Shown piece by piece: positions 3,862-52,887 of a stretch of 64,000 nt of DNA (position 1 is its first letter; each line of letters starts with the position of its first letter). The translations under genes and the position numbers were made by a program. This DNA comes from an uncultured Bacteroidota bacterium (lineage in GTDB: Bacteria > Bacteroidota > Bacteroidia > 2-12-FULL-35-15). The stretch is taken from positions 67,929-131,928 of the forward strand of contig CAINDA010000065.1 of assembly GCA_903847205.1 (NCBI GenBank), written 5' to 3'. The notes under the pieces are model-generated. The model was not told where the DNA came from. It saw nothing but the letters and a program-made list of their open reading frames with translations, and searched no databases.

Positions 3862-4012
3862 TTAATGGTTTATTAGTCGTTGAACATTGCTGGTAATCTT
3901 AATTTTGAAAATAGCGGAAGAATGCACCTGAAATTAAAAGCATCCCTCTCCCTGCAATGACTGAAAAATCCAGTGATTATTTTATTCCCGGTACTACATT
4001 GGTAAATCATTT

Positions 4013-4092
4013 CATCAGTACATAATCACATCGGCACATAAGTATATCAGTACATCACCACATCACCACATCAGCACATCCTCACATCATTT
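4013..4092. repeat. Degenerate octamer tandem repeat (CATCAGCA-like) x ~10
   Basis: The tract reads catcagta cataatca catcggca cataagta tatcagta catcacca catcacca catcagca catcctca catcattt. It lies between the hutU start and the 3' end of the small Cys-rich ORF. Confidence 0.4.
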
Positions 4093-5847: not shown

Positions 5848-7185
5848 TCAATGAAAAAACATATATGAAATAAAAATAGCGGCAATGACACCAGCCAGAT
5901 CCGCTATTAAACCTGCAGTAATTGCATACCTAGTTTTCTTTATCCCTACGGAGCCGAAATACAATGCAACAATGTAAAAAGTGGTATCTGCAGAACCCTG
6001 AAACACGCATGACAAGTGGCCTACAAACGAATTAGGTCCGTAAACATCCATTGCATTAATCATCATTCCCCTGGAACCGCTGCCGCTTAAGGGTTTCATC
6101 AATGCAGTCGGCAGAGCGCCGACAAAATCAGTATTGAAGCCTAAGAATCCAACTATCCATCCGATGCCGTTAACAAAATAATCCATTGCGCCGGAAGCCC
6201 TGAAAACAGCTATCCCCACTAACATTGCGACGAGATATGGAATTATTTTAATTGTTGTTTCAAATCCGGTTTTTGCTCCTTCAATAAAAGAATCATAAAC
6301 ATTTACTTTTTTGCGGACCGCCCCTATGATAAAAGCTGTAATAATTGAAAACAAAATTACGTTGGCGCTTACTTTTGAAATTACCGCAATCTGCTCATGC
6401 CGCAATGTGCTGAAGTACCAGATAAGACAGCCGACTAAAGCGCTTATACCCAATATCCATGTTAGGACAACACGGTTAAATAAATTTATTTTCTGCCAGA
6501 AGGCAACAGTTAAAAGCCCTATTAACGTTGAGAAATAAGTGGCAAGTAAAATCGGAATAAAAACATCAGAAGGGTCCGTTGCATGCTGTATGGCTCTCTG
6601 GGCAATGATTGTAATCGGTATCAGCGTAAAGCCGGAAGTGTTAAGAACCAAAAACATAATCTGAGCATTGGAGGCTGTTTCTTTATCAGGATTTAATTCC
6701 TGCATACTGCTCATTGCCTTTAATCCAATAGGTGTTGCGGCATTTCCAAGTCCTAACATATTGGCAGAAAAATTCATTAATATCTGTCCGTTGGCGGGAT
6801 GATTTTTGGGGATCCCAGGAAAGAGCCTGCTGAAAAACGGACCTACTATCCGTGATAAAAAATTTATTGCGCCGGCCTTTTCGCCGATGTTCATAAGCCC
6901 AAGCCACAGAGTCATCACGCCGGTCAGAGGCAGTGAAATATCCATCACCGCCATTTTTGATGAATCAAATGTGGCATCAATGATAGTTTTAAAAACTTCG
7001 GTATCGCCGGTAACCATCAGCTTTATAAGAGCGACGGCAAAGGCAATAATAAAAAATGCAATCCAGATATAATTCAGCACTTTGTTTAATTTTATTTCAG
7101 CCCGTAAAAAAAATAGCTTAATTAATAAACTGTTTAAATTATCAGCGAGCCCTTTTTTAATTGGCAGGCTTTGCAATTTTAACAA
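5848..7185 (-). CDS. Nucleoside-recognition (Gate) domain membrane protein, SpmA/SpmB-like fusion
   Basis: The 445-aa polytopic membrane protein has two glycine-rich Gate-like modules (GLMNIGEKAG... and GSGSRGMMINAMD...). Three overlapping short ORFs in this region are spurious. Confidence 0.5.
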   Translation of the reverse strand: MLKLQSLPIKKGLADNLNSLLIKLFFLRAEIKLNKVLNYIWIAFFIIAFAVALIKLMVTGDTEVFKTIIDATFDSSKMAVMDISLPLTGVMTLWLGLMNIGEKAGAINFLSRIVGPFFSRLFPGIPKNHPANGQILMNFSANMLGLGNAATPIGLKAMSSMQELNPDKETASNAQIMFLVLNTSGFTLIPITIIAQRAIQHATDPSDVFIPILLATYFSTLIGLLTVAFWQKINLFNRVVLTWILGISALVGCLIWYFSTLRHEQIAVISKVSANVILFSIITAFIIGAVRKKVNVYDSFIEGAKTGFETTIKIIPYLVAMLVGIAVFRASGAMDYFVNGIGWIVGFLGFNTDFVGALPTALMKPLSGSGSRGMMINAMDVYGPNSFVGHLSCVFQGSADTTFYIVALYFGSVGIKKTRYAITAGLIADLAGVIAAIFISYMFFH

Positions 7186-11084: not shown

Positions 11085-11535
11085 GTGTTTTTGAAAAATT
11101 GAATATAGGGAAGGGAAGAACAATCGGAGCGATATTTGCGGTTCAAACGATATGATTCTTTTTTTTTTGCAAAAAATATTAAAACGATTTTTTTATTTTT
11201 TTTATCGGCTGCTGTTTTCCGTAGAATAGAAATTCTTCTTTTAATACCCTTTTACATCACATCTACCTTATTATTAAAATTTTTCATTTCCTCTTCGCAT
11301 CGGAATAGTCTGTCCTTTCACAATAATTTTATGATCTTTAATTGATGTGATTTTTCTAATCTAACAGCCCGCTCATCATGTTTCTCGTTGAAGCATGTAC
11401 AACATACTTTTCCTTCAACTATGAATAGCAGCATAATCAAGCATTGTTTCTATCAAAAAAATATTTTTGGATCCAAACTAACTAAAAATGTGTAGACCTA
11501 ATTGGAAATTAAGCTGTTTACACCTTGATCTTTAC

Positions 11536-11718
11536 TCAAATAAAATGTTTTTTTGCTTTTAAAACGGCTTGTAAAAATCTCGAAGGTTCAACCGGCCTTA
11601 AAATAAAATCACAGACTTCGTGATCGTAAGCATCAATAGCAAATTCTTTTTTGGAAGCCATTACAATAACCTGTTGTTCTGGCTGAGTAAGGGTTTTGAG
11701 AAACTCTATACCTGTCAT
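11536..11718 (-). pseudogene. Orphan fragment of a response-regulator receiver domain (C-terminal half only)
   Basis: MTGIEFLKTLTQPEQQVIVMASKKEFAIDAYDHEVCDFILRPVEPSRFLQAVLKAKK matches the alpha3-beta5 region of CheY-like receivers (MPxMDGxELL...VIMLTA...A...GAxDYLxKP). An in-frame stop lies five codons upstream of the Met. There is no phospho-acceptor Asp region and no output domain. It sits in a 1.2-kb low-coding region. Confidence 0.35.
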
Positions 11719-12282
11719 GCCCGCCGTGGAATGCTAAAAAAACAAATCAATTTTTTCTTCAATTAATAATATTAGAAGCCTCGGACACTGAGCTGCATTT
11801 TAATGTGAAATGCAAAAATTTAGTTTTAGAAACTTACTTTTCAATCAAGTTTAATTTATGTTCATTGTAGTCGACTATAATACAGTTCATTTTTTACTTT
11901 TTAATTTGAGTATCAAAAGGTGTTTTCAAATGTGCAGTTTTATAAATTCTGAACGTCGGTGAGGAAAAATATGGCGGCAAAGAACACAGCATATTGACTT
12001 ATTAAGTATATAAAAAACATTCACCGCTAATATTTAAACATAAAAGGAATAGGGAAGGTTTAATTTTGTAAAATTCGGTTAAAAAAAGAATTCAAGCCAG
12101 CCTGACAAAAATTAAAATTTATAAAACAAAAAATCAGGCTTTCAATATAAATTCCAAAGCAATGGAGACGGGTTAAAGGGAGATTTTATATATAATAATC
12201 GGTATGAACTGAATAATGCATCCCGATTATTTATTTAAAGGATTAATCTGCGGTTTTGTTTTAGCTAAGAATTAAAAAAAAG

Positions 12283-12633
12283 TTAGAGGACAATAATTTT
12301 TCTACTATAAAATTTTTCGCCGTCCGAAAGTTTCACAAAATAAATACCTTTTGGTGAGTTTGAAATATCAATTATTGGTTGTTTGTCATTAATTTTTGAA
12401 TACAATTTTTCTCGAAGATTATTGTAAATTTCAATAGTCTGAGGCTTGCTTTCAGCTATATTCTGACGGATGGAAAAAACGCCGTTTTCAGGATTAGGAA
12501 AAATCTCCATAGAGTTTTCATTCTCTAAAACCTGGCTGATGCCTGTCGGCAGGGTTACACTTGCATCATCAATCCATAAAACACTGCCCGCTTTGGATTT
12601 TTGTCGAGTGATGATGAACTGTACAATATCCAT
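12283..12633 (-). pseudogene. Remnant carrying a T9SS C-terminal sorting domain
   Basis: The C-terminus EIFPNPENGVFSIRQ...IEIYNN...GIYFVKLSDGEKFYSRKIIVL is a Por/T9SS CTD. At 116 aa it is too short for a cargo protein. The upstream minus strand has protein-like sequence in another frame (VATGSSNWQQASINLTYLSSVTPDT) interrupted by stops, which suggests frameshift decay. Confidence 0.35.
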
Positions 12634-13114
12634 AATGTGTCAGGGGTTACAGAGCTTAAATAAGTTAAATTAATGGACGCCTGCTGCCAGTTTGAAGAAC
12701 CGGTTGCGACATTTGTTTTAAACACTCTGCCGGCAATCGGAAAGCCTTATTTCACTTGTTCCACATGGCATTCGGCAGTATCATTTCCATGAGGTTTATA
12801 TTGTTAATAAAAACTGAAATGGGTTATTTTTTGAGTGCAGGGGATGCCCGGTTTATATATTACGGTTGTTTCATTTTCATTACCATTAAATAAAATACCC
12901 AATGTATCAGAATATACATGGCCGATAAATGGAATTCCCAGTTTTTATAATAACCCCATGAAGTCTGGGTATATACTTTTGTTTCAATGCGGGCTGAGTA
13001 GGTGCCGGAATGTACTGTATCAGTGCATCTGGTAACTGATATAGGGCTGCTCCCGAGATAAGAATAATTAAAAAAATTATACTTTAAAATGGCAAGCTGT
13101 TTTTTTAACAGATT

Positions 13115-14012: not shown

Positions 14013-14693
14013 TTAAAATTTGCGGGTTAAACCGAAATAAACACCCAAAGCACCATGGCTTTTGAAAGGCGTTTGGTAATCAACTACCAGATTTTGATTT
14101 GATAAATTTGGGGCAATCACTTTAGTTTCTATAATAAAATTCCATTTTTTTAAAGTAAAGTTATGACCTGCTTCCGGCATAAATATCCAATGATTAGGCT
14201 GTATAATATCAAATGCTCGCTTCTGCGAGAGCTCAAACCAATTATCAATGCCGATGTAAAAAAAGTTTTTGCGCTTTCCGTATTCCCAAAATGCATTTAC
14301 AGTGAGCTGCGGATAAAGTTTGTGAGCATCCTTATTCCGGTAGATAATATTTAATGCAGGCGTGATTGTTAATGCCGGTAAATAAGTATGCTGCCTGCAC
14401 AGCTGTTTAGCTGCGCCGAGTTCCATCTGTAAATTTGCGAATAAAGCGGATGTAATATTAACGGAGCCAAAACCGGTTAACGAGCTGTCGATTCCATAGC
14501 CGTAGTTAGCAGTTAAAAACGGAACTGGAATAACAGAATTTCCATAGGTGATAAGAGGGCCTCCTAATGAAATATTTGCTGACTGCTGATTTTTATTCAA
14601 TGGTTTTACAAAACGTGCAGGAGAGCATGAATAAGAATTAATTATTAAAATACAAGCAGATATGCAGATTAAAAAAAAGAGATTTATTTTCAT
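14013..14693 (-). CDS. Putative outer-membrane beta-barrel protein (hypothetical)
   Basis: It has a signal peptide and a C-terminal ...GLTRKF ending in Phe, which looks like a beta-signal. The 226-aa protein is Gly/aromatic-rich with an alternating pattern. Confidence 0.4.
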   Translation of the reverse strand: MKINLFFLICISACILIINSYSCSPARFVKPLNKNQQSANISLGGPLITYGNSVIPVPFLTANYGYGIDSSLTGFGSVNITSALFANLQMELGAAKQLCRQHTYLPALTITPALNIIYRNKDAHKLYPQLTVNAFWEYGKRKNFFYIGIDNWFELSQKRAFDIIQPNHWIFMPEAGHNFTLKKWNFIIETKVIAPNLSNQNLVVDYQTPFKSHGALGVYFGLTRKF

Positions 14694-14828: not shown

Positions 14829-15047
14829 ATGAGAGATGTTTTTTATACCATATTAGTAGTCTGGATTATTTCGCGGGTGTTCAGCAGCATTAGTGCTTAT
14901 GGCAGCAAAAAAGAAAATAATTCAGCCGATTCAAAACCAAAGAGTAAACGTACAGATGGCCAAACCTCTGTTGATTATATTCCTCCTGTAAAAAAGAAAA
15001 TAAGCGATGATGAGGGAGAATATGTTGATTACGAGGATGTGAAATAA
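14829..15047 (+). CDS. Small membrane protein (one N-terminal TM helix, acidic C-terminus)
   Basis: The 72-aa protein starts FYTILVVWIISRVF (TM) and ends DDEGEYVDYEDVK. It resembles small DUF-type proteins of Bacteroidota. Coding status is uncertain. Confidence 0.3.
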   Translation: MRDVFYTILVVWIISRVFSSISAYGSKKENNSADSKPKSKRTDGQTSVDYIPPVKKKISDDEGEYVDYEDVK

Positions 15048-15075: not shown

Positions 15076-16032
15076 TTAATTTCCTTTTGCTATTTGATCA
15101 TAAATTCCCAGCATCTCAGCCTGTTCTTCAATAGTTTTAAATTCAGAAACATCACCGATTAAAAATTGCTTTGTCTGTAGCAGCAGCCCTGGTTTAAATT
15201 GAGTATCCAAAGCGTTATCAAGTTCGACTTTATTGACAGCAACAGAACCTTTCAATTGAATCTGGAGTTCTTCAAGAGGACGCAAAATTAACCGCGATTT
15301 TTTAGTAAGAATTTCAACACTCCATCTGCCCGGAGCATCCCAGTTAGCCTGATAAGAGAATAATAAATCATCCTTTGTTCTGCCAGCACCGGTAAACACA
15401 GATTTATTATGCCAGGAAAGACCACCCGATGCAAAACAGCTGATTTCAGAAGGCTTCCCGCCTAAATAAAAAGCTAAGTCAATCACATGAGTAGAATTGG
15501 CAAGCAGCCAATTTTCTTTTATTCCCGGCTTTTTATCTAATGGTTCAATAATATGAGCCCATTCAGTAAACTCAAAATTAAAAGATTTTACACCGCCGTC
15601 CTGCTCAATAATTTCTTTTGCTTTTAAAACAGATGCATAAAACCTGCGGTTGTAGGCCAGAAGTACCCTTGCCTTTTGCTGTTTAACAATTTGAGCAAGC
15701 TCATTAATTTCCTGATTATTCAGCCCGGCAGGCTTTTCAATCAATATATTTTTAAACCCTTTATTAACTAACTGAATTGCAGTGTAGGCAAGATCTTCCA
15801 TTCCAACCGCAATAATTGCAGCATCAAATGTAATCTTGTTCTCAAGCAGAAATTTTTCCGTGCCGCCGGTAATTATTTTACAGCTGGTTTTTTCTTCAAA
15901 ATTTGCTGCAGAATTTTCTCCTCTGCCAATAACTGTAACATCACATTGTAAGGCTTTCAGCACCTTGTAATAATCAACAGCCATTATGCCTGCACCGATT
16001 AATAATACTTTTTTATTTAGGTTATCGAACAT
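15076..16032 (-). CDS. Gfo/Idh/MocA family NAD(P)-dependent oxidoreductase (WbpB-like sugar dehydrogenase candidate)
   Basis: The N-terminal Rossmann motif reads KVLLIGAGIMAVDY. Length is 318 aa. It overlaps the next gene by 16 nt, consistent with an operon. Confidence 0.7.
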   Translation of the reverse strand: MFDNLNKKVLLIGAGIMAVDYYKVLKALQCDVTVIGRGENSAANFEEKTSCKIITGGTEKFLLENKITFDAAIIAVGMEDLAYTAIQLVNKGFKNILIEKPAGLNNQEINELAQIVKQQKARVLLAYNRRFYASVLKAKEIIEQDGGVKSFNFEFTEWAHIIEPLDKKPGIKENWLLANSTHVIDLAFYLGGKPSEISCFASGGLSWHNKSVFTGAGRTKDDLLFSYQANWDAPGRWSVEILTKKSRLILRPLEELQIQLKGSVAVNKVELDNALDTQFKPGLLLQTKQFLIGDVSEFKTIEEQAEMLGIYDQIAKGN

Positions 16033-16988
16033 TCGTCAATAGAATTATCATTGTTTTCTTTTCGTAAAAATGAGATCAAATTATTTAAAAATAATAAATG
16101 AAGTTCAGCAGATTCTTTATAGGCGGTGAGACTGCAGTTTCCTGTTCTTAAAATTTCATCTGCTGCTATATTTGTTAATTGGCTCTGAAAAGGCATATTA
16201 AATGTTTGTTCTTCAAGGGCCCAATTATTATCAAGTCTGCTTATCCAAACTTTTGCTTCAGGCCCCTCTTCAATACTGTATCTTACAGCTGCGGTATTTA
16301 TATTTATCCTCAAAGAAGGCGTTTTATCCGGAAAAGAAGCGATGAGAAATGTATGTCCGCCTGTCTTTCCCGTTATGGTGCCTGTGAATTCAATATAACC
16401 CGGACGTTTGCTTTCAATAACTGTTTTATCAATTAAATCATTTGATAATACAATGTTATCTGATTTTGTTAAAAATGCAAACAAATCAAGTAAATGAATA
16501 CCGTTGCAGCTCAATCCCCATGAATTTCCAGAAGCATTGAATTCAACATTTCCGGAAAGTTCCTTTTGTAAATTCTGATAAAAAGGAATCATTCTGCGCG
16601 GGCAGTTTACCCAGGCTTTAATTTTTTTTTCAGTCAGCAATTTTTCAACCGCTTGATAATCGTCCGATTTAACAAATAAGAATTTTTCTAAAATTAAATT
16701 CTTAACATTTGAGTTTGCTGTTAACTGCTCAACCACGCGCCTCCGCACTTTAGAATTAGTAGCAACAATAGCAATATCAATTTGTTTTTCAAGCGCAGAA
16801 ATATCCGTATGAAAAGAAATTTTTCCAGTAAAATTGCTGCCAACCTCTTTAAAACGGGCCTCAGCAACTGCTAATGACTCGGCAGAAGAATCAACTACCT
16901 GAATGCAAACCGGATGTTTCATTGAAGCCAGTGCCTGCAAATGCCTGCTTCCTAATTGCCCTGCTCCTATTATTGCTATGTTTTTCAT
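16017..16988 (-). CDS. Gfo/Idh/MocA family NAD(P)-dependent oxidoreductase
   Basis: MKNIAIIGAGQLGSRHLQAL Rossmann N-terminus in a 323-aa protein. It is a paralog-like partner of the downstream gene. Confidence 0.7.
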   Translation of the reverse strand: MKNIAIIGAGQLGSRHLQALASMKHPVCIQVVDSSAESLAVAEARFKEVGSNFTGKISFHTDISALEKQIDIAIVATNSKVRRRVVEQLTANSNVKNLILEKFLFVKSDDYQAVEKLLTEKKIKAWVNCPRRMIPFYQNLQKELSGNVEFNASGNSWGLSCNGIHLLDLFAFLTKSDNIVLSNDLIDKTVIESKRPGYIEFTGTITGKTGGHTFLIASFPDKTPSLRININTAAVRYSIEEGPEAKVWISRLDNNWALEEQTFNMPFQSQLTNIAADEILRTGNCSLTAYKESAELHLLFLNNLISFLRKENNDNSIDECSIT

Positions 16989-17084
16989 TTATAAAAAGCC
17001 TGAAATATTTTTATCCTAAGCTACCTTTATCATAAAATTAGTAAAAAAGGCGTTTTACTTGATTCATTTTTCAACTATTTCAGC

Positions 17085-17310
17085 CAAATCTAATCTTTTT
17101 CATCCAAATATGTTTTTGTTTCATCCAAAACAAATTTTTTTCAGCCTATGCAAAACATTTTCAGCTTGTACAAACCTTTTTCAGCCTATGCAAACCTTTT
17201 TCAACTCATGCAAACCTTTTTCAGCTTGTGCAAACCTTTTTCGACATATGCAAAACTTTTTCGGCCAGTGCAAACCTTTTTCAGCCTAATATGTTTTGTT
17301 TCAGCCTAAT
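17085..17310. repeat. Tandem array of ~10-11 copies of a 20-bp unit (consensus CAAACCTTTTTCAGCCTATG)
   Basis: Units are contiguous with no spacers. Each has a conserved 12-nt core CAAACCTTTTTC and a variable 8-nt tail (agcctatg, aactcatg, agcttgtg, gacatatg, ggccagtg, agcctaat). The array sits in the divergent intergenic region between the Gfo/Idh/MocA operon (-) and the FG-GAP T9SS gene (+). Confidence 0.7.
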
Positions 17311-17441
17311 CGATTCGATTCGGCTAAAACCTATTATATCACAATTATACCATTATATTCTTTTAATCATGTTTTTAATCGTTTTTTTTGTATACTATTG
17401 TCGCTAATTAAGTTTCAATTTTAAATTAAAGAAATAAGGTC

Positions 17442-19907
17442 ATGAAAAAAACTAACATCCTCACAATTTTTCTTTTTGTCGTATTGGCCTTTAATTCAAA
17501 TGGACAACCGGTTATTACTTCATTTACCCCTGCATCCGGTGCAGTCGGCACTTCAGTAACAATTATCGGAAGCAATTTCAGTGCAGTGCCCGCCAATAAT
17601 ATTGTTTATTTTGGTGCAGTAAAGGCTGTTGTAAATACTGCATCAGTCTCTAGTCTAAATGTTACTGTTCCTGTTGATGCATCATACCAGTTTATTACAG
17701 TTACCACGAATAATCTTACGGCCTATTCGTTTCAGCCATTTAATGTGACATTCCAGTGTTTCGGGGCAATAGATTCCAGCTCCTTTTCAGGACATATAGA
17801 TTATACCACAGGAACCGATCCCCGCAGGATTTCAATAGGCGATTTGGACGGAGACGGGAAGTCTGATCTGGCTGTTGCGAACCATATCGGCCAAACCATT
17901 TCAGTATTTAAAAGCACTAGTACAAGCGGAACTATTTCATTTTCACCAAAAGTGGATTACACACCGGGAGGAGCCCCATCATGCGTTACTATCGGCGATT
18001 TAGACGGCGACGGAAAGCCCGAACTTGTTACAGCGAATAATAATAGTAATGATAACGTTTCAGTATTCAAAAACACAAGTACAATCGGTGCTGTTTCCTT
18101 TGCCGCACGTGTTGATTTTATAGCTGGGACTTATCCTTATTTAGTTTCAATTGGAGATTTGGACGGGGATGGGAAACCGGATCTTGCTGTAGTGAATTAT
18201 TCAAACAATACTGTTTCAATATTAAGAAATACAACTTCAGGCGGGATAATTTCATTTGCAGCAAAAGTTGATTACATAACTGGCAGCAGCCCTAACAGTA
18301 TTTCAATTGGTGATTTGGATGGAGATGGAAAACCTGATTTGTCGATAGCAAATCGTTCCTCCAACACAGTTTCTGTCTTAAAAAACTTAAGCACAAACGG
18401 AACAATTTCATTTGCCCCTAAAGTGGACTATATTACCGGCACATCTCCCTGCGGCGCTTCTATAGCTGATTTGGATGGAGATGGAAAGTTTGATCTAATA
18501 ATACCAAATTTGGGTTCTAACACTCTTTCTATATTTAGAAATACAAGTATAAGCGGAACTATTTCCTTCGCTTCGAAGGTGGATTTTAGCGGCGGAGCCG
18601 GTTCAAGCAATATTTCGACCGGTGATTTAAATGGCGACGGAAAGCCTGATATTGCTGTGACAAATTACAATGCCAATAGCATTTCTATATTTAAAAATAC
18701 GAGTACAATCGGGGCCATTTCTTTTTCTCCAAAAACTGACTTTCCGGCCTCTGGCTCCGCAAACCCTGCCTGTGTTTCTATCGGCGATTTAGACGGTGAC
18801 GGGAAACCCGACCTAGCTGTGGCGAGTGAAGGAGCAAGCAGTTCAGGAACTTCTATTTCAATTTTAAAGAATCAGGTAACATGCGCTTCTTCTTCTCCCG
18901 CCGATGCACGTTTTACATCATCGCAACCAGGCTGTACCGGCCAGTTAGAAAACTTTTACAGCGTTATGGCCGGAGTATCTGGTATAACTCATTCATGGAG
19001 TTTTGGTTCAGGAGCGGCCCCGGCCTCATCTGCTTTGGAAAATCCAACCGGAATAGTTTATTCAATAATGGGAGCTAAAATTGTTACACACATTGTTACC
19101 GCAGGCTCTAACTCCGATACAGTTATTAATATAATAACAATCAACCCTTCCCCGGCTGCATCCTTTATTTCCTCAGCCCCCGCATGTAGCGGTAATATTG
19201 TTAATTTCAGCAATTCAGGGAGCACGGGACCAGGGGTAACTTATTCCTGGGATTTTGGCTCTGGGGCATCTCCAAATACTTCTACATCTCTAAATCCAAA
19301 TGGAATAATTTATAATACTGCAGGAACAAAAACAGTTTCTTTATCCATAAGCAATGAATTTGAATGTGTTACTTCCACAACACAAACCATCACTATAAAT
19401 CCTTTACCATTAATAAGTTTATTTCCTTTTACAGCAGTTTGTATGCAGGCTGTACCATTTGCATTAACTGGCGGCCTGCCCACCGGAGGAACATATTCCG
19501 GAACAGCTGTTGATAGTTTGGGTGTATTTCATCCAGGAAGCGCAAATGCAATTCAGACAATTTTTTATACCATAACTAATTCATTTAACTGTTCTAATAT
19601 GCTATCTCAAAACATTACTGTTCATGACTGCACCGGAATTGACGAAAATAATGTCCTGCCGGAAATTACCATTTACCCTAACCCGGCAAATGGAATATTT
19701 AATATTGCAGTAAAAAATTCAGGCTCAAATGAGCTGCAGATTGGCATATTTGATATGCAGGGAAAGGAAGTATTCAATACTTTATATAAAAACACCGGAG
19801 CTGATTTCAATAAACAAATAAGCTTAGAGACTTTGGCAAAAGGCATTTACTATGTTAAACTAAATACAAGATTGAATTCTCAGATTCAAAAATTAATTAT
19901 TCAATAG
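17442..19907 (+). CDS. T9SS-secreted FG-GAP repeat / PKD-domain surface protein
   Basis: It has a signal peptide and an IPT-like N-terminus. There are at least nine FG-GAP repeats of the form ISIGDLDGDGKPDLAVAN, then PKD-like modules. The C-terminus is a T9SS sorting domain (ITIYPNPANGIFNIAV...GIYYVKLNT...KLIIQ). Confidence 0.75.
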   Translation: MKKTNILTIFLFVVLAFNSNGQPVITSFTPASGAVGTSVTIIGSNFSAVPANNIVYFGAVKAVVNTASVSSLNVTVPVDASYQFITVTTNNLTAYSFQPFNVTFQCFGAIDSSSFSGHIDYTTGTDPRRISIGDLDGDGKSDLAVANHIGQTISVFKSTSTSGTISFSPKVDYTPGGAPSCVTIGDLDGDGKPELVTANNNSNDNVSVFKNTSTIGAVSFAARVDFIAGTYPYLVSIGDLDGDGKPDLAVVNYSNNTVSILRNTTSGGIISFAAKVDYITGSSPNSISIGDLDGDGKPDLSIANRSSNTVSVLKNLSTNGTISFAPKVDYITGTSPCGASIADLDGDGKFDLIIPNLGSNTLSIFRNTSISGTISFASKVDFSGGAGSSNISTGDLNGDGKPDIAVTNYNANSISIFKNTSTIGAISFSPKTDFPASGSANPACVSIGDLDGDGKPDLAVASEGASSSGTSISILKNQVTCASSSPADARFTSSQPGCTGQLENFYSVMAGVSGITHSWSFGSGAAPASSALENPTGIVYSIMGAKIVTHIVTAGSNSDTVINIITINPSPAASFISSAPACSGNIVNFSNSGSTGPGVTYSWDFGSGASPNTSTSLNPNGIIYNTAGTKTVSLSISNEFECVTSTTQTITINPLPLISLFPFTAVCMQAVPFALTGGLPTGGTYSGTAVDSLGVFHPGSANAIQTIFYTITNSFNCSNMLSQNITVHDCTGIDENNVLPEITIYPNPANGIFNIAVKNSGSNELQIGIFDMQGKEVFNTLYKNTGADFNKQISLETLAKGIYYVKLNTRLNSQIQKLIIQ

Positions 19908-44819: not shown

Positions 44820-46004
44820 ATGATTTTAGAAATCCCAAAGCCGGCATTAACAATGTATAAACAAACAGTTGATTTTATTAAATCACAATTCCCATCTCAG
44901 GATTCGATTCAGCTGCATGAGCCTGTTTTTAATGGTAATGAAAAAAATTATCTGATAGACTGTGTTGATTCAACCTTTGTTTCATCAGTTGGAAAATATG
45001 TGGATAATTTTGAAAAACAGTTGGCTGCTTATACAGGTGCAAAGTATGCTGTTGCCTGCGTAAACGGCACTGCAGCCCTTCACATGGCAATGATTACCGC
45101 AGGAGTTCAAAGGAATGATATTGTAATTACTCAGCCTTTAAGTTTTATTGCAACATGCAATGCCATTGCCTACATTGGTGCATCGCATTTATTTGTGGAT
45201 GTTGATAAGGATACAATGGGTTTAAGCCCGGAAAAACTAAAAACTTATTTGACTGAAAATGCTGTAAAAAAATCAGACGGTTTTGCCTATCATAAGTCAA
45301 CCGGACAAAAAATCGCAGCCTGCATACCCATGCATACATTCGGTCATCCCTGCCGTATTGATGAACTTGCCGTTATCTGCAATGAATATAATATTGCACT
45401 GATTGAAGATGCAGCTGAATCTATAGGCAGTTATTATAAAAATAAACATACAGGCACTTTCGGACTTTTAGGAACATTTAGTTTTAACGGCAATAAAACC
45501 ATTACCTGCGGCGGGGGAGGAGCTATTGTTACCAATAATGAAGCATTGGCAAAAAGAGCTAAATATTTAACCACCCAGGCTAAAGTGCCTCATCGCTGGG
45601 AATTTGTGCATGATGAAATTGGATATAATTACCGGATGCCTAATATTAACGCGGCATTGGCCTGTGCCCAGCTGGAGCAGCTGAATCCTTTTCTTGAAAA
45701 TAAACGCAGTCTGGCGAAGCTCTATTCCGAATTTTTTAAAGGAACCGGGATGCAATTTATGGAAGAGCCGTCTGATTCAAAATCAAACTATTGGCTTTGT
45801 TCAATATTGCTGCCTGATAAAAAAACACGTGACGAGTTTTTACAATACAGCAATGATAACGGGGTAATGACCCGTCCTGTGTGGAGATTAATGAATAAAC
45901 TTGTGATGTTTAAAGATGCCATCTGCGGTAATTTAGATAATGCACAGATGCTGGAAGACAGGCTGGTGAATATACCGAGCAGTGTGAGGATGCAAATAAA
46001 ATGA
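44820..46004 (+). CDS. DegT/DnrJ/EryC1/StrS family PLP-dependent sugar aminotransferase (LegC/PseC-like)
   Basis: LHEPVFNGNEKNYLIDCVDSTFVSS...AVACVNGTAALHMAMI...FSFNGNKTITCGGGGAIVTN carries the conserved Lys (FNGNK). The start may instead be Met12 at 44853. Confidence 0.8.
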   Translation: MILEIPKPALTMYKQTVDFIKSQFPSQDSIQLHEPVFNGNEKNYLIDCVDSTFVSSVGKYVDNFEKQLAAYTGAKYAVACVNGTAALHMAMITAGVQRNDIVITQPLSFIATCNAIAYIGASHLFVDVDKDTMGLSPEKLKTYLTENAVKKSDGFAYHKSTGQKIAACIPMHTFGHPCRIDELAVICNEYNIALIEDAAESIGSYYKNKHTGTFGLLGTFSFNGNKTITCGGGGAIVTNNEALAKRAKYLTTQAKVPHRWEFVHDEIGYNYRMPNINAALACAQLEQLNPFLENKRSLAKLYSEFFKGTGMQFMEEPSDSKSNYWLCSILLPDKKTRDEFLQYSNDNGVMTRPVWRLMNKLVMFKDAICGNLDNAQMLEDRLVNIPSSVRMQIK

Positions 46005-46636
46005 GAGTGCTTGTAATCAGCGATATTCATGGAAATTTACCTGCTTTAGAATACGTTCTTAAGGAGGAGCAATCTGCTGATTTGGTTATTTCATTGGGTG
46101 ATGTTGTAAATTACGGACCTTGGAGTAATGAATGTGTTGATTTAATGGATTCATTAAAAAGTAAAGTTTTGATTTTAGGAAATCACGAAGAGGCATTTCT
46201 TGATGGGCTGTATCAGGGAAGTAATTTAACAGCAAAAGCCTTTTTTGAAATATGTTACCCAAGCTTTAATCGAAAAGACCAAGTCAGTAAGTACATAAAA
46301 ATGTATTCTTTCAAAGATGCAGTTTTTACTCATACATTAAACAATAGCTATATTTTCAATGACTCAGAAATTCAAATTGAGAAAGATACTTTTATCGGCC
46401 ATTCGCACCGGATATTTTTAAAAGATGTAAACGGTTATAGATTGGTAAACGTTGGCAGTGTAGGACAAAACCGTATAAATATCGATGAGCTCAATTATGT
46501 AATCTGGGATACTGAAAATAATTCTGTCGAATTAATGAGAAAAGAATTTAATGTCGATCAGCTTATTCAAGAAATGAAAATTAAAAACTATCCCGAAATA
46601 TGCCTCAATTATATTTTATCTAAACGCATTAAATAA
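46001..46636 (+). CDS. Metallophosphoesterase (calcineurin-like, YfcE-type)
   Basis: MRVLVISDIHGNLPALEYV (DxHG), SLGDVVNYGP (GD motif), GNHE and GHSH form the motif series. Length is 211 aa. Confidence 0.65.
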   Translation: MRVLVISDIHGNLPALEYVLKEEQSADLVISLGDVVNYGPWSNECVDLMDSLKSKVLILGNHEEAFLDGLYQGSNLTAKAFFEICYPSFNRKDQVSKYIKMYSFKDAVFTHTLNNSYIFNDSEIQIEKDTFIGHSHRIFLKDVNGYRLVNVGSVGQNRINIDELNYVIWDTENNSVELMRKEFNVDQLIQEMKIKNYPEICLNYILSKRIK

Positions 46637-46638
46637 TA

Positions 46639-47631
46639 ATGGGAAACAAAATAAATATAGCCATTACGGGAACAGGCAGTTTAATTGGTCAGGCGGTTAT
46701 TAAGTCAATACAGCGTTCTAATCTAAAAGATAAAATTAGTATAGTCGGCTTTGATTATTTTAAAGAAACAGTTGGTTCGTTTTGGTCAGATAAAAATTAT
46801 TTTCTGCCTGATATTTTAAGACCTGGTATCAGCGAGGAAAAATGGATAAACGTAATTATAAATGCAATTCTTGAAAACAACATTAAACTATTATTTGCCG
46901 GAGTTGATTTTGAACTCCCTCTTTTTGCTAAATATAAAACTGTTATAGAGGAAAAAACAGGTGTTATAATAATGGTAAGTTCTGCAGCCGTTATTGAAAT
47001 TGCAGACGATAAATATTTAACTTACGAATTCTTAAAGAAACATGACCTTTCGCATCCAAAATCTTTTTTACCTGGCGAAGCAGATTTTAATACATTAAAA
47101 TATCCTCTGATTATAAAACCCAGAAAAGGAGCAAGAAGCAAGGGTGTTTATAAAGTAAAAGATAAAGATCATCTCTTAAGCGTTATTGACTCAATTAAAG
47201 ATCCGATTATTCAGGAATGTATAGGTATTGACGAAGAAGAATATACCTGCGGAACAATATATTTGAATGGCGAACTAAAAAAAATAATTGTTTTAAAAAG
47301 GAGTTTAAAAGAAGGAAATACGTTTATCTCTCATTACAAAAATGATTTTCCGGAGATTATTACGACCTATTTAAAAGAAGTTTCGAATTACTTAAAACCT
47401 TTTGGGGCTTGTAATTTTCAGTTAAGACTTGATTCAGAAGGCCTGCCTAAAATATTTGAGATTAATTCTCGTCACTCGGGTACAACCTACATTCGTTCAT
47501 TGTTCGGTTTTAAGGAAGTTGAATATATTATCAATTATCTTTTATTTAATATTGAAATGGAATTTGAAATGAGAGAAGGAACTGTGGTGAGATATTTCGA
47601 CGAATTTTTTGTTCAATCTAATAAAAAATGA
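46639..47631 (+). CDS. ATP-grasp domain enzyme (ligase) within the nonulosonic-acid cluster
   Basis: PLIIKPRKGARSKGVYKVKDKD is the B-loop and FEINSRHSGT the Mg/ATP site. Length is 330 aa. Confidence 0.6.
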   Translation: MGNKINIAITGTGSLIGQAVIKSIQRSNLKDKISIVGFDYFKETVGSFWSDKNYFLPDILRPGISEEKWINVIINAILENNIKLLFAGVDFELPLFAKYKTVIEEKTGVIIMVSSAAVIEIADDKYLTYEFLKKHDLSHPKSFLPGEADFNTLKYPLIIKPRKGARSKGVYKVKDKDHLLSVIDSIKDPIIQECIGIDEEEYTCGTIYLNGELKKIIVLKRSLKEGNTFISHYKNDFPEIITTYLKEVSNYLKPFGACNFQLRLDSEGLPKIFEINSRHSGTTYIRSLFGFKEVEYIINYLLFNIEMEFEMREGTVVRYFDEFFVQSNKK

Positions 47632-48485
47632 AAATTTTAATTACCGGCGTTAACGGTTTTGCAGGGAAGGTGCTGTATAAATATTTGTCCCAGCAGCATG
47701 AAGCTGCAGGGATATATAACAGCGGTAAGGCAATGTTTGGTAATTGTTTTAAAGTTGATTTAACAAAAGAAGCCGAAACAATTCAGGTTATTGGAAAGGC
47801 AGGCGGAGGTTCTATTGATGCTATTGTGCATTTGGCTTCACAGACAGCAAATACAGGCAATGTTAATGATCTTTCGGTGCTATTCAATAATGCAGCTATT
47901 TCAAAGAATATTGCTTTAGCAGCCAGAGAATATGCCGTTAAGCAATTTGTTAATTTATCAAGCTCCTCTGTCTATCCCAATATTGACGGTGTATTCCATG
48001 AAAATTCCAGTATAAACCCAGCGTTGAATTCTGACGGCATTTATGGGTTATCAAAATATAACAGCGAAGTGATTTTAGATTATTTTTTGTCTAAAACAGA
48101 AATTGAAATAACACATTTAAGAACCGCAATGATAATCGGCGAAGAAATGGAAAGTACACGTTTAATTCCCGTTATTGAAAATGAAATAGTAGAACATAAT
48201 ACAGTTACATTATTTGGAAAAGGTGAGCGCTTATTGAACTTAATCAGGGTGGAAAAGCTGGCTGAATATGTATCTTTTTTTTTAAGCCATCCATCTCATA
48301 ATATTGTTAATATAGCAGAAGAGTGCTTATCAGTATTTGATTTAGCTAAAAGGATAATTGTTCAAAAAGGGAATGCTGAAACTAAAATTATCTTGAAAGA
48401 AGAAGGAAACAGAAGTAAATTTATTTTGGATATACAAAAGTTGAAAAAAATAATGGCAAATAGCGTGAATCATGGAGAAAAATAA
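47628..48485 (+). CDS. NAD-dependent epimerase/dehydratase family protein
   Basis: MKILITGVNGFAGKVLYKYL Rossmann N-terminus and YGLSKYNSE YxxxK. Length is 285 aa with a 4-nt overlap with the ATP-grasp gene. Confidence 0.6.
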   Translation: MKILITGVNGFAGKVLYKYLSQQHEAAGIYNSGKAMFGNCFKVDLTKEAETIQVIGKAGGGSIDAIVHLASQTANTGNVNDLSVLFNNAAISKNIALAAREYAVKQFVNLSSSSVYPNIDGVFHENSSINPALNSDGIYGLSKYNSEVILDYFLSKTEIEITHLRTAMIIGEEMESTRLIPVIENEIVEHNTVTLFGKGERLLNLIRVEKLAEYVSFFLSHPSHNIVNIAEECLSVFDLAKRIIVQKGNAETKIILKEEGNRSKFILDIQKLKKIMANSVNHGEK

Positions 48486-48641
48486 TAATCTGTAAGTTAG
48501 GCAAAAAAGGTTAAATAAGGGACAGTTTTTGAATAGGCACATGATTTATAGTTTAGTTATTTGTTGATATAATTTATCCTTATACCTTTGATTCGATGAA
48601 TATTTTAATTCACCTGCTTCAATGTCGAAACAATTACCGTT

Positions 48642-50132
48642 ATGAAAAATTTCAAAAAAAAGTTTCAACTTTTATTCATTATATTTTTTATCAATACCTT
48701 TTTGACTTTTACAAAATGTGATGCCCAAAATAATGTCGGTATTGGTACGACTACACCTGCACCATCTGCTTTATTAGATATAGATGCAAGTCCAGCAAAT
48801 GATAAAGGAATACTTATTCCAAGGATGAATACAGGGCAGATGAATGCTATTGTCTCCCCAGCAAATGGGTTATTAATTTATAATACGGATTGTAATGTGT
48901 TCGATTATTGGAACGGCTCAGCTTGGATCCCTTTTCCTTTCTCTGGCATAGGCCCTCCACAGCCTAGCACGATTACTGGCATGAGCCCTGTTTGTTTAGC
49001 TCAAAACGGAGTTGTTTATTCTGTTATCAATGTGAGCGGTGTAACGTACTCATGGACCTATTCTGGTACAGGCTTCACCTGCTCTTCAGGATGCACAAGC
49101 AATACCATAACAGCCGCCTTTTCTGCTTCAGCAACTTCCGGTATTCTCACCGTTACACCAAGCAGTGCCTGTGCTGTTGGCACACCCCAAACCTTTAATA
49201 TTACTGTGAATGGCCTTCCTACTGCTGCCAACGCAGGAGCTGATATAAATCCGGCATGCAGTGTAAGCAATACTACGTTAGCCGGAAATCCACCAATAAT
49301 TGGTACAGGTTCATGGTCGGTAGTATCTGGTACGGCCTCCATCACTACCCCAGGTTCTCCTTCATCTGGGGTCACAGGATTGGCAGTGCCTGGCATAGCT
49401 ACCTTGCGGTGGACAATTTCCAATGCTCCCTGCACCTCGTCAACTGATGATGTTGTTATTACAACTACCTCATGCGGATCCACTTGCGGCTTACAAACAT
49501 TTGCATCAGCTAATTTAAATGTTGGTGTCATGGTAACCAGCGATGGTTCACATACTGCACAGCAGCAAACCAATAACGGTGTTGTCGAAAAATACTGTTA
49601 TAACAACGTGACTGCCAATTGTGCCATTTACGGCGGTTTTTATGAATGGCCAGAAGCAATGAGCTACTCTGCTTCTATTAACTGCGATCCTTGCGGAAGC
49701 AGCGGTGTTCAGGGGATATGTCCTTCAGGTTTGCATATACCGACCGATTTAGAATTTAGCCGCTATGAATATTGCTTAGAAAATACTATTGCGCCGACTG
49801 GAAACACAACTTTGTCAGATTTTCAGACTTTAACAAGCTGGCGCGGCACTAATTCAACAGCAGGACCGGGGGCGAAAATGAAAGTAACAAACAGTAACTC
49901 TCCCGCATGGGATGGCACCAATGCCAGCGGTTTCTCGGCACTTCCCGGAGGATTTCGAACGAGCTCAAATGGTGCGTTCTCAACTATGGGCTTATACTCG
50001 CTCTTCTGGAGTGCATCGGAGAATAGTGGTATTGATGCTTGGGCTCGTCGTCAAACTACAGGCAGCGGGCAGTCCGATCGGGGGCTGGGAACAAAAACAG
50101 GTGGTTTTCAGGTTCGTTGTCTGTACGATTGA
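48642..50132 (+). CDS. Secreted protein with C-terminal Fibrobacter succinogenes major paralogous (FISUMP) domain
   Basis: It has a signal peptide and a central Ig/PKD-like Thr/Ser-rich region. The C-terminus FSALPGGFRTSSNGAFSTMGLYSLFWSASENSGIDAWARRQ...GGFQVRCLYD has the YWSS...A..R....SVRC-type signature of the Fib_succ_major domain. The 171-aa antisense ORF 49058..49573 is spurious. Confidence 0.6.
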   Translation: MKNFKKKFQLLFIIFFINTFLTFTKCDAQNNVGIGTTTPAPSALLDIDASPANDKGILIPRMNTGQMNAIVSPANGLLIYNTDCNVFDYWNGSAWIPFPFSGIGPPQPSTITGMSPVCLAQNGVVYSVINVSGVTYSWTYSGTGFTCSSGCTSNTITAAFSASATSGILTVTPSSACAVGTPQTFNITVNGLPTAANAGADINPACSVSNTTLAGNPPIIGTGSWSVVSGTASITTPGSPSSGVTGLAVPGIATLRWTISNAPCTSSTDDVVITTTSCGSTCGLQTFASANLNVGVMVTSDGSHTAQQQTNNGVVEKYCYNNVTANCAIYGGFYEWPEAMSYSASINCDPCGSSGVQGICPSGLHIPTDLEFSRYEYCLENTIAPTGNTTLSDFQTLTSWRGTNSTAGPGAKMKVTNSNSPAWDGTNASGFSALPGGFRTSSNGAFSTMGLYSLFWSASENSGIDAWARRQTTGSGQSDRGLGTKTGGFQVRCLYD

Positions 50133-50214
50133 TTAGTTAACAATTTGCCTCAAAATTGAGGTTTGTAATTCTTGAAATTATCTATCCTAGATTTGAATTG
50201 ATATTTAATCAAAA

Positions 50215-50757
50215 ATGTTTAAGCACCTAAAATTCATTCTGTTTTATCCTAAAATAGGACCAGATATGTACTTAACACATTGGCTTTTGTTTTTTAAACC
50301 TTTTCGTATGTGGTTTCAAAAATATAAAATTGGGAGCATTGGGTCCAACTCTGAAATAAGGCCTTATTGCACAATTATAGGAACCCAAAATGTAGTTATC
50401 GGAAATAATGTTATTATTCCCAATGGGACGACGTTATGTAATTTACCTGGAGATAAAAAATCATTTATTTATATTGAGGATGATGTGCTGCTTGGACCTA
50501 ATGTGGCTATTTACAGCAGTACACATAATTTTCAGAATATAGAAATTCCTATAAAAAATCAAGGTTACAAAACTGCCGAAACACGTTTAAAAAAAGGATG
50601 CTGGGTGGGAATTAATTCTGTGATATTACCGGGTGTTACAATTGGAAAAAATAGCGTTGTAGGTGCTAATTCTGTAGTAAATATAGATGTGCCGGATTTT
50701 GCCGTTGTCGCCGGTGCTCCAGCCAAAATAATAAAATATATCAATGATCCTAAATAG
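50215..50757 (+). CDS. Hexapeptide-repeat (left-handed beta-helix) sugar acetyltransferase (LegH/PseH/WbpD-like role plausible)
   Basis: Consecutive [LIV]GxxxxI hexads: IGNNVIIPNGTTL, VLLGPNVAIYSS, CWVGINSVILPGVTIGKNSVVGANSVV. The true start may be an internal Met. Confidence 0.7.
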   Translation: MFKHLKFILFYPKIGPDMYLTHWLLFFKPFRMWFQKYKIGSIGSNSEIRPYCTIIGTQNVVIGNNVIIPNGTTLCNLPGDKKSFIYIEDDVLLGPNVAIYSSTHNFQNIEIPIKNQGYKTAETRLKKGCWVGINSVILPGVTIGKNSVVGANSVVNIDVPDFAVVAGAPAKIIKYINDPK

Positions 50758-51778
50758 AAACAAAGTATTTATAATAGCCGAAGCAGGCGTTAATCATAAC
50801 GGAAGCATGGATATGGCTGTAAAGTTGATTGACGCAGCAATTAATGCAAAGGTTGATGCAGTAAAATTTCAGACCTTTATTGCCGAAAATGTAATTTCAA
50901 AATACGCTGAAAAAGCCGACTATCAGAAGGAATCCACTGGTGAAAACGAAAGTCAGCTGGATATGGTTAAGAAACTTCAATTGAGTTTCAAAAATTTTAC
51001 TGAATTAAAAATGTATTGCGATTCAAAAGGAATAATGTTTCTTTCTACTCCGTTTGATATGGCCAGTGTTGATTTCTTAGCCACATTAAAAATGGGATTG
51101 TGGAAAATTCCCTCCGGCGAAATTACTAATATGCCCTATCTGCAAAAAATTGGGAGTTTTAATGAGGAAGTTATTTTCTCTACGGGTATGTCAACTTTAG
51201 GCGATATAGAAAATGCATTAAAAATATTAATTGATGCTGGTACATCAAAAGAAAAAATTACAGTACTGCATTGCAATACAGAATATCCTACCCCGATGAT
51301 TGATGTAAATTTAAAGGCGATGTTAACCATTAAAGGAGCATTTGATATTAACATAGGTTATTCTGATCATACCTTAGGAATTGAAGTGGCCATCGCAGCA
51401 GCGGCTTTAGGAGCAAATGTTATTGAAAAACATTTTACATTGGACAAGTCACTTCCTGGACCGGATCACAAAGCATCATTAGAACCTCAGGAATTAAAAG
51501 CGATGACGGCAGCAATAAGAAATACTGAACTGGCTTTAGGAAGCAGAGTAAAATTGCCGACATCTTCAGAAAAAAAGAATATTAACATAGCCCGCAAAAG
51601 TATTCATTTAGCAAAAAATATCACAAAAGGGGCAGTTATTACAACTGATGATTTAATTATTAAACGTCCTGGAAATGGGATAAGTCCGATGTTTTTAAAT
51701 GAAATTATAGGCTGCGTTGTAAAGCATGATCTCACCGAGGACAGCATTTTAAATTTCAAAGATATAGAATGGAAATAG
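50744..51778 (+). CDS. Nonulosonic acid synthase (NeuB/LegI/PseI family, with C-terminal SAF domain)
   Basis: VFIIAEAGVNHNGSMDMAVKLIDAA is the NeuB N-terminal signature. It also has KFQTF, YSDHTLG and a SAF-domain C-terminus. Length is 344 aa. Confidence 0.8.
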   Translation: MILNRNKVFIIAEAGVNHNGSMDMAVKLIDAAINAKVDAVKFQTFIAENVISKYAEKADYQKESTGENESQLDMVKKLQLSFKNFTELKMYCDSKGIMFLSTPFDMASVDFLATLKMGLWKIPSGEITNMPYLQKIGSFNEEVIFSTGMSTLGDIENALKILIDAGTSKEKITVLHCNTEYPTPMIDVNLKAMLTIKGAFDINIGYSDHTLGIEVAIAAAALGANVIEKHFTLDKSLPGPDHKASLEPQELKAMTAAIRNTELALGSRVKLPTSSEKKNINIARKSIHLAKNITKGAVITTDDLIIKRPGNGISPMFLNEIIGCVVKHDLTEDSILNFKDIEWK

Positions 51779-52878: not shown

Positions 52879-52887
52879 ATTTTATTC

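Follow-up and report, generated by a model that had tools for sequence, protein, structure and literature searches.

Bacterial minisatellites, or VNTR loci, are imperfect, lineage-specific, non-coding arrays of 10–100-bp units that are generated by slippage or unequal recombination. Porphyromonas gingivalis carries BrickBuilt, an intergenic minisatellite of imperfect 23-nt units that lies inside a MITE with IS5-like ends. Of its 19 copies per genome, 5 adjoin T9SS CTD genes; its bidirectional promoter activity has been demonstrated and its copy number varies by strain (PMC4596501). In Vibrio cholerae, the ctxAB promoter is preceded by tandem T-rich heptad repeats that are bound by regulators and by H-NS, and the number of these repeats is strain-variable and influences promoter output (10.1101/2021.05.14.444153). 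Iterons and the ParR/ParG centromeres are arrays of ~20-bp direct repeats, upstream of an operon and able to wrap a cooperative protein filament. One example, pSK41 parC, has four 20-bp repeats. The ribbon-helix-helix (RHH) centromere binders have been reviewed (PMC3074162).

Here, we analyze a 20-bp repeat array in a 64-kb stretch of DNA, hereafter the window, from an uncultured Bacteroidia bacterium. By analogy, its closest described precedent in kind is BrickBuilt. Both occur in Bacteroidota as strictly intergenic, head-to-tail, imperfect repeats of ~20 nt (20–23 nt) without spacers, and in both, conservation is limited to part of the unit positions. BrickBuilt frequently lies beside T9SS C-terminal-domain genes, ~50–600 nt from coding sequences, and the present array adjoins a T9SS cargo gene. 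The precedent of intergenic imperfect minisatellites in P. gingivalis (PMC4596501) speaks in favor of a minisatellite here. The two differ in that BrickBuilt has a 23-nt unit, a leader and a tail, IS5-like inverted ends and 19 copies, whereas the array has a 20-nt unit and one copy in 64 kb; promoter activity and strain-dependent copy-number change have been measured for BrickBuilt, whereas the array is known from sequence alone.

The original prediction, in which the array could mediate phase-variable or regulator-titrated expression of a glycan locus, is by analogy closest to the ctxAB model. The heptads are identical 7-bp units at the core promoter with known binders, whereas the array units are 20 bp long and diverged, most of them 100–300 bp from the candidate T9SS-gene promoter. 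Iterons and ParR/ParG centromeres, which the array may resemble in repeat length and arrangement, are plasmid-borne and sit beside rep or par genes, whereas the array is chromosomal and has neither such genes nor a plasmid or phage match. No difference was established from VNTR and minisatellite loci in general, the class to which we assign the array: we consider it an ordinary lineage-specific non-coding minisatellite whose effect in cis is passive or weak at most, at a probability of about one half.

Location and anatomy of the array

The array sits in a 453-bp gap (16989–17441) between divergently read genes, and its units and neighbors are arranged as follows.

15076–16032, minus strand: Gfo/Idh/MocA oxidoreductase, second of an overlapping pair (Pfam, ORFs)
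16017–16988, minus strand: Gfo/Idh/MocA oxidoreductase, first of the overlapping pair (Pfam, ORFs)
17077–17136, plus strand: three older degenerate left units that keep TTTCAKCC(A/T)AA at 20–21-bp spacing (Tandem Repeats Finder, lay-out)
17137–17276, plus strand: seven central units with consensus TTTTTCAGCCTATGCAAACC and a mean pairwise identity of 81% (Tandem Repeats Finder, lay-out, identity matrix)
17277–17316, plus strand: two decayed right units, TTTTTCAGCCTAATATGTTT and TGTTTCAGCCTAATCGATTC (lay-out, repeat families D2 and D3)
17442–19907, plus strand: T9SS cargo protein of 821 aa with TIG, FG-GAP repeats, PKD and Por_Secre_tail, and an N-terminal signal-like sequence (Pfam)

A glycan biosynthesis locus follows the T9SS cargo gene at 20.3–31.9 kb (Pfam). 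ORFs and Pfam domains agree with the location first given for the array, in a divergent promoter region between the start of the Gfo/Idh/MocA operon and the T9SS cargo gene. Regulatory repeats typically occupy such a position, ahead of a gene for a secreted adhesin-like protein and of a glycan locus, an observation that speaks against a plain minisatellite.

Tandem Repeats Finder (TRF) returned a tandem array with a period of 20 at 17137–17288 (7.6 copies, 78% matches, score 185), whose consensus is the one originally proposed in rotated form. A 60-bp super-period (84% matches) was detected within the array, and a second, degenerate 20-bp array was reported at 17078–17143 (3.2 copies, 74%). 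With the units laid out at 20 bp, the whole comprises ~12 phased units over 17077–17316 (~240 bp), and TTTC occurs 12 times at a spacing of 20–21 bp (17078, 17098, 17119, 17139 and onward to 17299). The initial description of ~10 contiguous 20-bp units at 17085–17310 is a fair one, given 7.6 good copies by TRF and 12 occurrences of TTTC.

Pairwise comparison of the central units gave matches at 13–19 of 20 positions, every unit being distinguishable; the units at 17137 and 17177 agree at 19/20 and those at 17157 and 17217 at 18/20. Outer units share only 6–14 of 20 positions with central ones. The unit at 17277 starts well and then decays, and the unit at 17297 does likewise. Repeat family D2 pairs 17073–17116 with 17254–17297 (80%), overlapping only the first of the right units, and family D3 pairs 17099–17117 with 17280–17298 (84%), so that the left and right flanks of the array resemble one another. 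Within the array, exact repeats reach 18 nt in length and recur at distances of 40 and 100 bp.

The GC content of the array is 0.36, which is not below that of the window. Matches to the unit pattern numbered seven in the array and one elsewhere in the window, over the full length of which 1.76 would be expected by chance. In 100 shuffles a count of eight was never attained; the array pattern is therefore not due to chance. These results confirm that the array is real and that its place, period, consensus and approximate copy number had been given correctly.

Conserved positions and helical phasing

The unit had been described as an invariant 12-nt core followed by a variable 8-nt tail. This description did not hold: the exact 11-mer CAAACCTTTTT, reading CAAACCTTTTTC each time in the 20-bp lay-out, occurs five times, and the invariant columns, 12 of 20 among the seven central units, are non-contiguous. 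Treating the units as related copies on most parsimonious trees, we counted 13 substitution steps in total among the seven central units, 9 of which fall in six adjacent columns (7–12). A scan test for clustering of the variable columns gave p ~0.05 under a uniform multinomial and 0.12 under column permutation. The core-plus-tail pattern is thus no more than suggestive. The outer units keep TTTCAKCC, a motif that coincides in part with the columns variable in the central units. Conservation falls on different parts of the unit in the two groups, which a single constrained binding core would not predict.

Substitutions are not clearly confined to a spacer, as suits a minisatellite. The concentration of 9 of 13 steps in six columns and the presence of TTTC in 12 of 12 units fit weak selection on a repeated site, which suits it less well.

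With a standard helical repeat of 10.5 bp per turn, a 20-bp period rotates by ~34° per unit and by more than one full turn across 12 units. The proposed alignment of sites on one face of the DNA applies to neighboring units, whereas over the whole array the sites are not all on one helix face because of this drift. Strong curvature was rejected: in a wedge model, the end-to-end shortening of the array ranks at about the 26th percentile within the window, with only the left edge reaching the 94th–97th percentile.

These features bear on the main rival to the minisatellite reading, a cooperative binding platform on which a regulator (LytTR-, AraC-, OmpR-type or ribbon-helix-helix) or a nucleoid protein would polymerize from a terminal palindrome along the units. 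The divergent Gfo operon, the T9SS cargo gene and the glycan genes would then come under the control of this protein, with unit number setting the dose response. We regard this as a tentative possibility. The strict phasing of TTTC and T-tracts at 20–21 bp over 12 units argues for it, as do the borderline clustering of variable columns and an analogy with the ctxAB TTTTGAT heptads, which are bound by ToxR, ToxT and H-NS (10.1101/2021.05.14.444153). The weak core statistics, the conservation of different parts in outer and central units and the loss of a common face through helical drift argue against it. Operators of LytTR-, AraC- or OmpR-type regulators have direct repeats roughly two helical turns from one another, beside the −35/−33 element of their promoter; the array is spaced at 20–21 bp, but it counts 12 units rather than 2–3 and stops ~70 bp short of the candidate −33 element of the T9SS gene. 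The unit motif is also absent from every other intergenic region of the 64-kb window, in which no part of the unit is enriched elsewhere.

Terminal palindrome and folding

The right end of the array carries one further feature.

17298–17330, no strand assigned: imperfect palindrome in which the last unit is joined by a partial unit in inverted orientation (GTTTCAGCCTAATCGATT / CGATTCGGCTAAAAC) (DNA fold)

When folded as DNA, the palindrome reached z-scores of −4.4 (plus strand) and −5.5 (minus strand), and 0 of 200 shuffles were equally stable. A terminal palindrome built from the unit motif is an arrangement typical of protein-binding sites, and this sharing of the motif favors cooperative binding. 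A palindrome of such significance, made from the unit motif, is not what a simple minisatellite suggests.

In contrast to the palindrome, the array itself gave z +1.4 to +1.6, a poorer fold than that of shuffled sequence, and a folded RNA was rejected. For the region as a whole, z was 0.19 on the plus strand and −1.9 on the minus strand, the latter signal being due to the terminal hairpin alone. The original prediction had named an annotated structural RNA as the outcome that would speak against it. A known structured RNA was rejected, the search of the region with Rfam having returned nothing relevant at E up to 10; at gathering thresholds, the whole window likewise gave nothing relevant in Rfam. 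Coding sequence was rejected, since a period of 20 is not divisible by 3 and the mechanical ORFs have no family match.

A product encoded by the array, either a small RNA or 5′ leader sponging an RNA-binding protein or a small repetitive peptide, is extremely improbable. The plus strand of the unit is stop-free in all frames, giving mechanical ORFs of 53–76 aa, and the minus-strand fold (z = −1.9) could hint at an RNA. However, the period of 20 puts successive units in different frames and the ORFs match no family; Rfam has no match at E up to 10, the array is less stable than its shuffles, the minus-strand signal is that of the terminal hairpin, and a terminator-like site was not found.

CRISPR arrays alternate ~23–55-bp repeats with unique spacers of about equal length, and a leader or cas genes nearby are usual though not obligatory. 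The array was rejected as a CRISPR locus because its 20-bp units run head to tail without spacers, and Pfam identified no cas domains or genes among all 50 ORFs of at least 150 aa in the window, as the original prediction had anticipated.

Candidate promoters and the question of slippage

The Bacteroidetes promoter consensus consists of TTTG at −33 and TAnnTTTG at −7. A pattern scan with these elements yielded two candidates.

17085–17092, minus strand: perfect Bacteroidetes-type −7 box TAGATTTG, located among the left degenerate units and oriented toward the Gfo pair (pattern scan)
17387–17416, plus strand: candidate promoter of the T9SS cargo gene, with TTTG, an 18-nt spacer and TAAGTTTC (pattern scan, consensus match only)

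The −7 box is a candidate element of the Gfo-pair promoter and has no −33 TTG at canonical spacing. The candidate T9SS-gene promoter lies ~70 bp downstream of the array, as measured from the array end to its −33 element, and ~25 bp upstream of the ATG; the array overlaps only the candidate Gfo-pair −7 box. Both the overlap with this perfect box and the proximity to the candidate T9SS promoter are in keeping with a cooperative binding platform. On the minus strand, six central units read AAGGTTTG or AAGTTTTG and match TAnnTTTG at 7 of 8 positions; they were rejected as promoters, the TTTG-to-box spacing being 12 nt and not ~19. A sigma-54 reading of the unit was rejected by eye on account of an unsuitable GG-to-GC spacing. 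The promoter matches, as consensus matches only, would fit a repeat that has grown from the Gfo-pair promoter region.

The original prediction also invoked phase variation by copy-number slippage. As a contingency locus, the array would undergo frequent slipped-strand gain and loss of units that tunes the T9SS adhesin-like cargo and the glycan locus. The array is upstream of surface-related genes, it contains exact repeats of up to 18 nt at distances of 40 and 100 bp, and its history shows block duplications. A fragmentary assembly of the same strain also breaks 54 nt upstream of the Gfo ATG; this break carries little weight because the same assembly is broken elsewhere too. The near-identical units of a contingency locus were not found, the mean identity being 81% and the longest exact repeat 18 nt, and with every unit distinguishable a recent homogenizing turnover is not apparent. 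In addition, the candidate promoters are at or outside the array edges, so that unit number leaves the −33/−7 spacing unchanged. Phase variation by slippage is disfavored by the divergence of the central units, and a fast switch is unlikely because frequent slippage would have kept the units alike. We consider a contingency locus decidedly unlikely; rare copy-number change would still be allowed by the exact matches of up to 18 nt.

Search for regulators and mobile elements in the window

No gene for a regulator or DNA-binding protein was found in the 64 kb, either by Pfam among all 50 ORFs of at least 150 aa or among the small ORFs in gaps, and no small DNA-binding (RHH-like) ORF was present in any intergenic gap of the window. 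Citrate synthase is followed in the window by an LRR protein and then by 2 kb of gene debris, in which a 60-aa receiver-domain fragment and a truncated T9SS C-terminal domain can be recognized; the former, in a decayed region, is the sole receiver-domain sequence in the 64 kb. A regulator that would polymerize on the array is accordingly not encoded nearby, which weighs against the binding platform, and neither a cognate regulator nor other targets of a direct-repeat operator were found within the 64-kb window.

A more specific form of protein binding is doubtful. It holds that the array is a multi-site operator nucleated at the palindrome and bound by a Bacteroidia protein encoded elsewhere, that unit number, altered by rare block duplication or deletion, sets expression, and that the targets are the secreted adhesin-like protein and the glycan locus. 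If true, this operator would parallel the ctxAB heptad array, with 20-bp units, in a phylum for which no such device has been described.

The resemblance to iterons extends to tandem direct repeats of ~17–22 bp (here period 20, with 7.6 good and ~5 degenerate copies); it fails in that there is no rep gene, no DnaA box and no plasmid or phage match. It is very improbable that the array represents the iterons or partition centromere of an integrated plasmid or phage, a chromosomal origin or an assembly artefact. Its 20-bp direct repeats are similar in size to iterons and ParR centromeres, and the genes around it are divergent. However, plasmid or phage iterons were rejected because rep, par, integrase and phage genes are absent from the window, and blastn of 72,556 plasmids and 50,697 phages gave no match. 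A ParR/ParG-type partition centromere was rejected as the neighbors are Gfo/Idh/MocA and T9SS cargo genes, with no parMR or parAB. For oriC, also rejected, no DnaA box within one mismatch occurs in 16989–17441, and there is no GC skew switch, the skew simply tracking gene orientation. Against an artefact, the proteins of the two flanks occur on contigs as long as 338 kb, and the contig-length distribution is the same for the Gfo and the radical-SAM genes to either side, suggesting that several assemblies span the region.

In view of the likeness to BrickBuilt, the array could instead be the internal minisatellite of a non-autonomous MITE with outward promoters, inserted between the genes. BrickBuilt is an intergenic 23-nt imperfect Bacteroidota array with conserved and non-conserved halves, often beside T9SS CTD genes, with bidirectional promoter activity and strain-variable copy number (PMC4596501), and the present array takes up the greater part of the gap between its neighboring genes, within a rearranged island. 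Yet the window holds no second copy of the unit array or of either array flank, and no transposase. No IS5-type terminal inverted repeats were seen (no GAGACC...TTTGCA-type ends, by eye), the sole flanking inverted pair, I3, being 15 nt long, 80% complementary and AT-rich. A non-repetitive leader and tail with IS5-like ends were not found, the flanks consisting of decayed units. We regard such an element as unlikely.

Comparison with relatives and other DNA

The nearest retrievable Gfo orthologues share 72–74% protein identity and belong to a differently organized glycan operon. Upstream of four of them (L124, L128, L129 and L131) there is no array, only ordinary AT-rich regions without repeats. 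A LytTR response regulator and a histidine kinase adjoin the homologous glycan locus in relatives, which lends some support to a cooperative binding platform, but the relatives' loci hold nothing comparable to the array. Apart from the same strain, relatives of the T9SS cargo protein are at paralog level, with at most 58% identity over about half of the protein.

At the citrate-synthase-cluster loci of relatives (L132–L137), synteny extends from urocanase to citrate synthase, with complete divergence beyond; the region downstream of citrate synthase differs in each relative examined, and none of these loci carries an array. The single blastn match to the first 11 kb of the window is ~74% identical (L137). 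Divergence after citrate synthase in every relative places the array within a variable, rearranged island, beside decayed genes. As far as can be seen from these sequences, the array appears to be lineage-specific; the relatives compared are too distant to inform on selection.

A contig search with a single 16-mer returned chance single matches only, and none of 119 loci holds an array. A two-unit pattern searched in metagenome and viral collections retrieved four loci (L120–L123). L121, with up to 40 copies of a 20-bp unit, is unrelated, as MORN and RING-finger genes on its contig make it eukaryote- or giant-virus-like; L120, L122 and L123 (2–5 units) lie in unrelated contexts. We took all four for chance occurrences of a T-rich 12-mer. 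As a base rate, ~0.95 Mb of unrelated prokaryotic loci contained just two arrays with a period of 12–40 and at least 5 copies, and in both the period is a multiple of three. A non-coding array such as the present one is uncommon but not extraordinary. That nothing comparable was found in ~0.95 Mb bar those two sits less easily with an ordinary minisatellite.

Origin and significance of the array

The anatomy of the array, its non-coding and non-RNA nature, its absence from the distant relatives compared and its position in a variable island are established here. We read the array as a minisatellite grown by tandem and block duplication because it has two age layers, block-wise similarity, flanks that are alike and 81% identity among its central units. 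As its anatomy suggests, a ~20-bp piece of the Gfo-pair promoter region would have been tandemly duplicated in at least two rounds, an old layer giving the decayed outer units and a younger layer the seven central ones. Block duplications probably took place in the younger layer, in which units 1 and 3 are alike, as are units 2 and 5. The copies may have been produced by slippage during replication or by unequal recombination, in either case between exact matches as short as 14–18 nt, and would have drifted apart after duplication. The present effect of the minisatellite is probably mostly passive, that of ~240 bp of unstructured, phased T-tract/TTTC DNA between divergent promoters, and its copy number may change on rare occasions. 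Nothing points to a dedicated binding protein or to an RNA or peptide product. The interpretation offered by the original prediction is, overall, partly supported.

As it stands, the array is a further example of a lineage-specific minisatellite, placed in a variable island for surface glycans and adhesins. Such arrays can break short-read assemblies, and this one is a possible strain marker. To our knowledge, very little is known about how environmental Bacteroidota tune their T9SS surface proteins. Should protein binding or a link between unit number and expression prove true, the array would provide a handle on the tuning of T9SS-secreted surface proteins in environmental Bacteroidota, and it would extend the BrickBuilt observation that repeats gather beside T9SS cargo genes.

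Surroundings of the Gfo pair

The two overlapping Gfo/Idh/MocA oxidoreductase genes (Gfo pair; window 15076-16032 and 16017-16988, minus strand) belong to a longer glycan operon in the relatives fetched through the Gfo protein, comprising an epimerase, DegT, NeuB and Epimerase_2 (L129 1-3631; L131 1-3603). There a gene for a 221-aa protein that has no Pfam match precedes the pair, and a histidine kinase lies at the flank. A LytTR response regulator adjoins the kinase in L129 and in one contig from the same place, and the corresponding gene in L131 is cut and carries no Pfam record. Unlike in these relatives, the Gfo pair of the window stands apart from such operon, kinase and regulator genes. 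The features around it and further along the window are as follows.

Features of the window outside the array
4002-4089, divergent gap between the urocanase (minus) and PALP enzyme (plus) genes: second small tandem array (TRF)
11085-13114: gene debris, 2 kb, without long ORFs
11536-11718, minus: 60-aa fragment inside the debris, resembling a response-regulator receiver domain
12283-12633, minus: 116-aa ORF inside the debris; its equivalent on a contig of the same strain carries the annotation T9SS C-terminal sorting domain
14829-15047, strand opposite to the Gfo pair and downstream of it: small 72-aa ORF, match to DUF4834 (E 3.8e-6)
44820-54623: second sugar-nucleotide cluster, with DegT aminotransferase, NeuB, UDP-GlcNAc 2-epimerase, NTP_transferase plus CBS domain, and CTP_transf_3 cytidylyltransferase

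Gene calling on an independent assembly picked out the ORF matching DUF4834 as well; its neighbor, a 226-aa protein (14013-14693, minus), gave no family match. The second sugar-nucleotide cluster is distinct from the locus at 20-32 kb and looks like a nonulosonic acid pathway.

Tandem repeats at other sites

The small array between the urocanase and PALP genes is built from an 8-bp CACATCAG-like unit in ~10 copies, on which a super-period of 40 bp is superimposed (TRF scores 70 and 100). Two of the four loci matched by a two-unit repeat pattern, like the other two, were judged unrelated to the 20-bp array beside the Gfo pair. In L120 (68-135), from an organism unrelated to that of the window, a CCCAAACCTTTTTCT direct repeat occurs twice, 20 bp apart, in a neat two-site layout immediately adjoining a promoter-like TTGACA-N17-TATAGT, upstream of a gene that starts MRLSKRGEYGLRAM and resembles an Rrf2-type regulator. 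L121, a metagenome contig bearing MORN-repeat and RING-finger genes and probably of eukaryotic or giant virus origin, opens with a nested repeat region (109-1260), in which a 20-bp unit (TGAGTCTCCAAAACTTTTTC) recurs ~40 times and the run is broken about every 300 bp by a 115-bp segment that is itself repeated.

Gene order past citrate synthase

Urocanase, PALP, glucosaminidase, Gate, enolase and citrate synthase follow the same order in the window and in the loci fetched through the citrate synthase cluster (L132-L137). Three of these, on related metagenome contigs (L133, L134 and L135), carry a 171-bp tandem repeat at 6427-6954 (3.1 copies, 95% identity), between a PMT_2 glycosyltransferase-like gene ending at 6334 and the Gate transporter gene starting at 7141. 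The shared order breaks immediately past citrate synthase (window 10217 onward), and from there gene content differs in each relative (AbiEii, metal efflux, UbiD and others). Because each relative has different genes past this point, we place the array and the glycan loci within a variable island.
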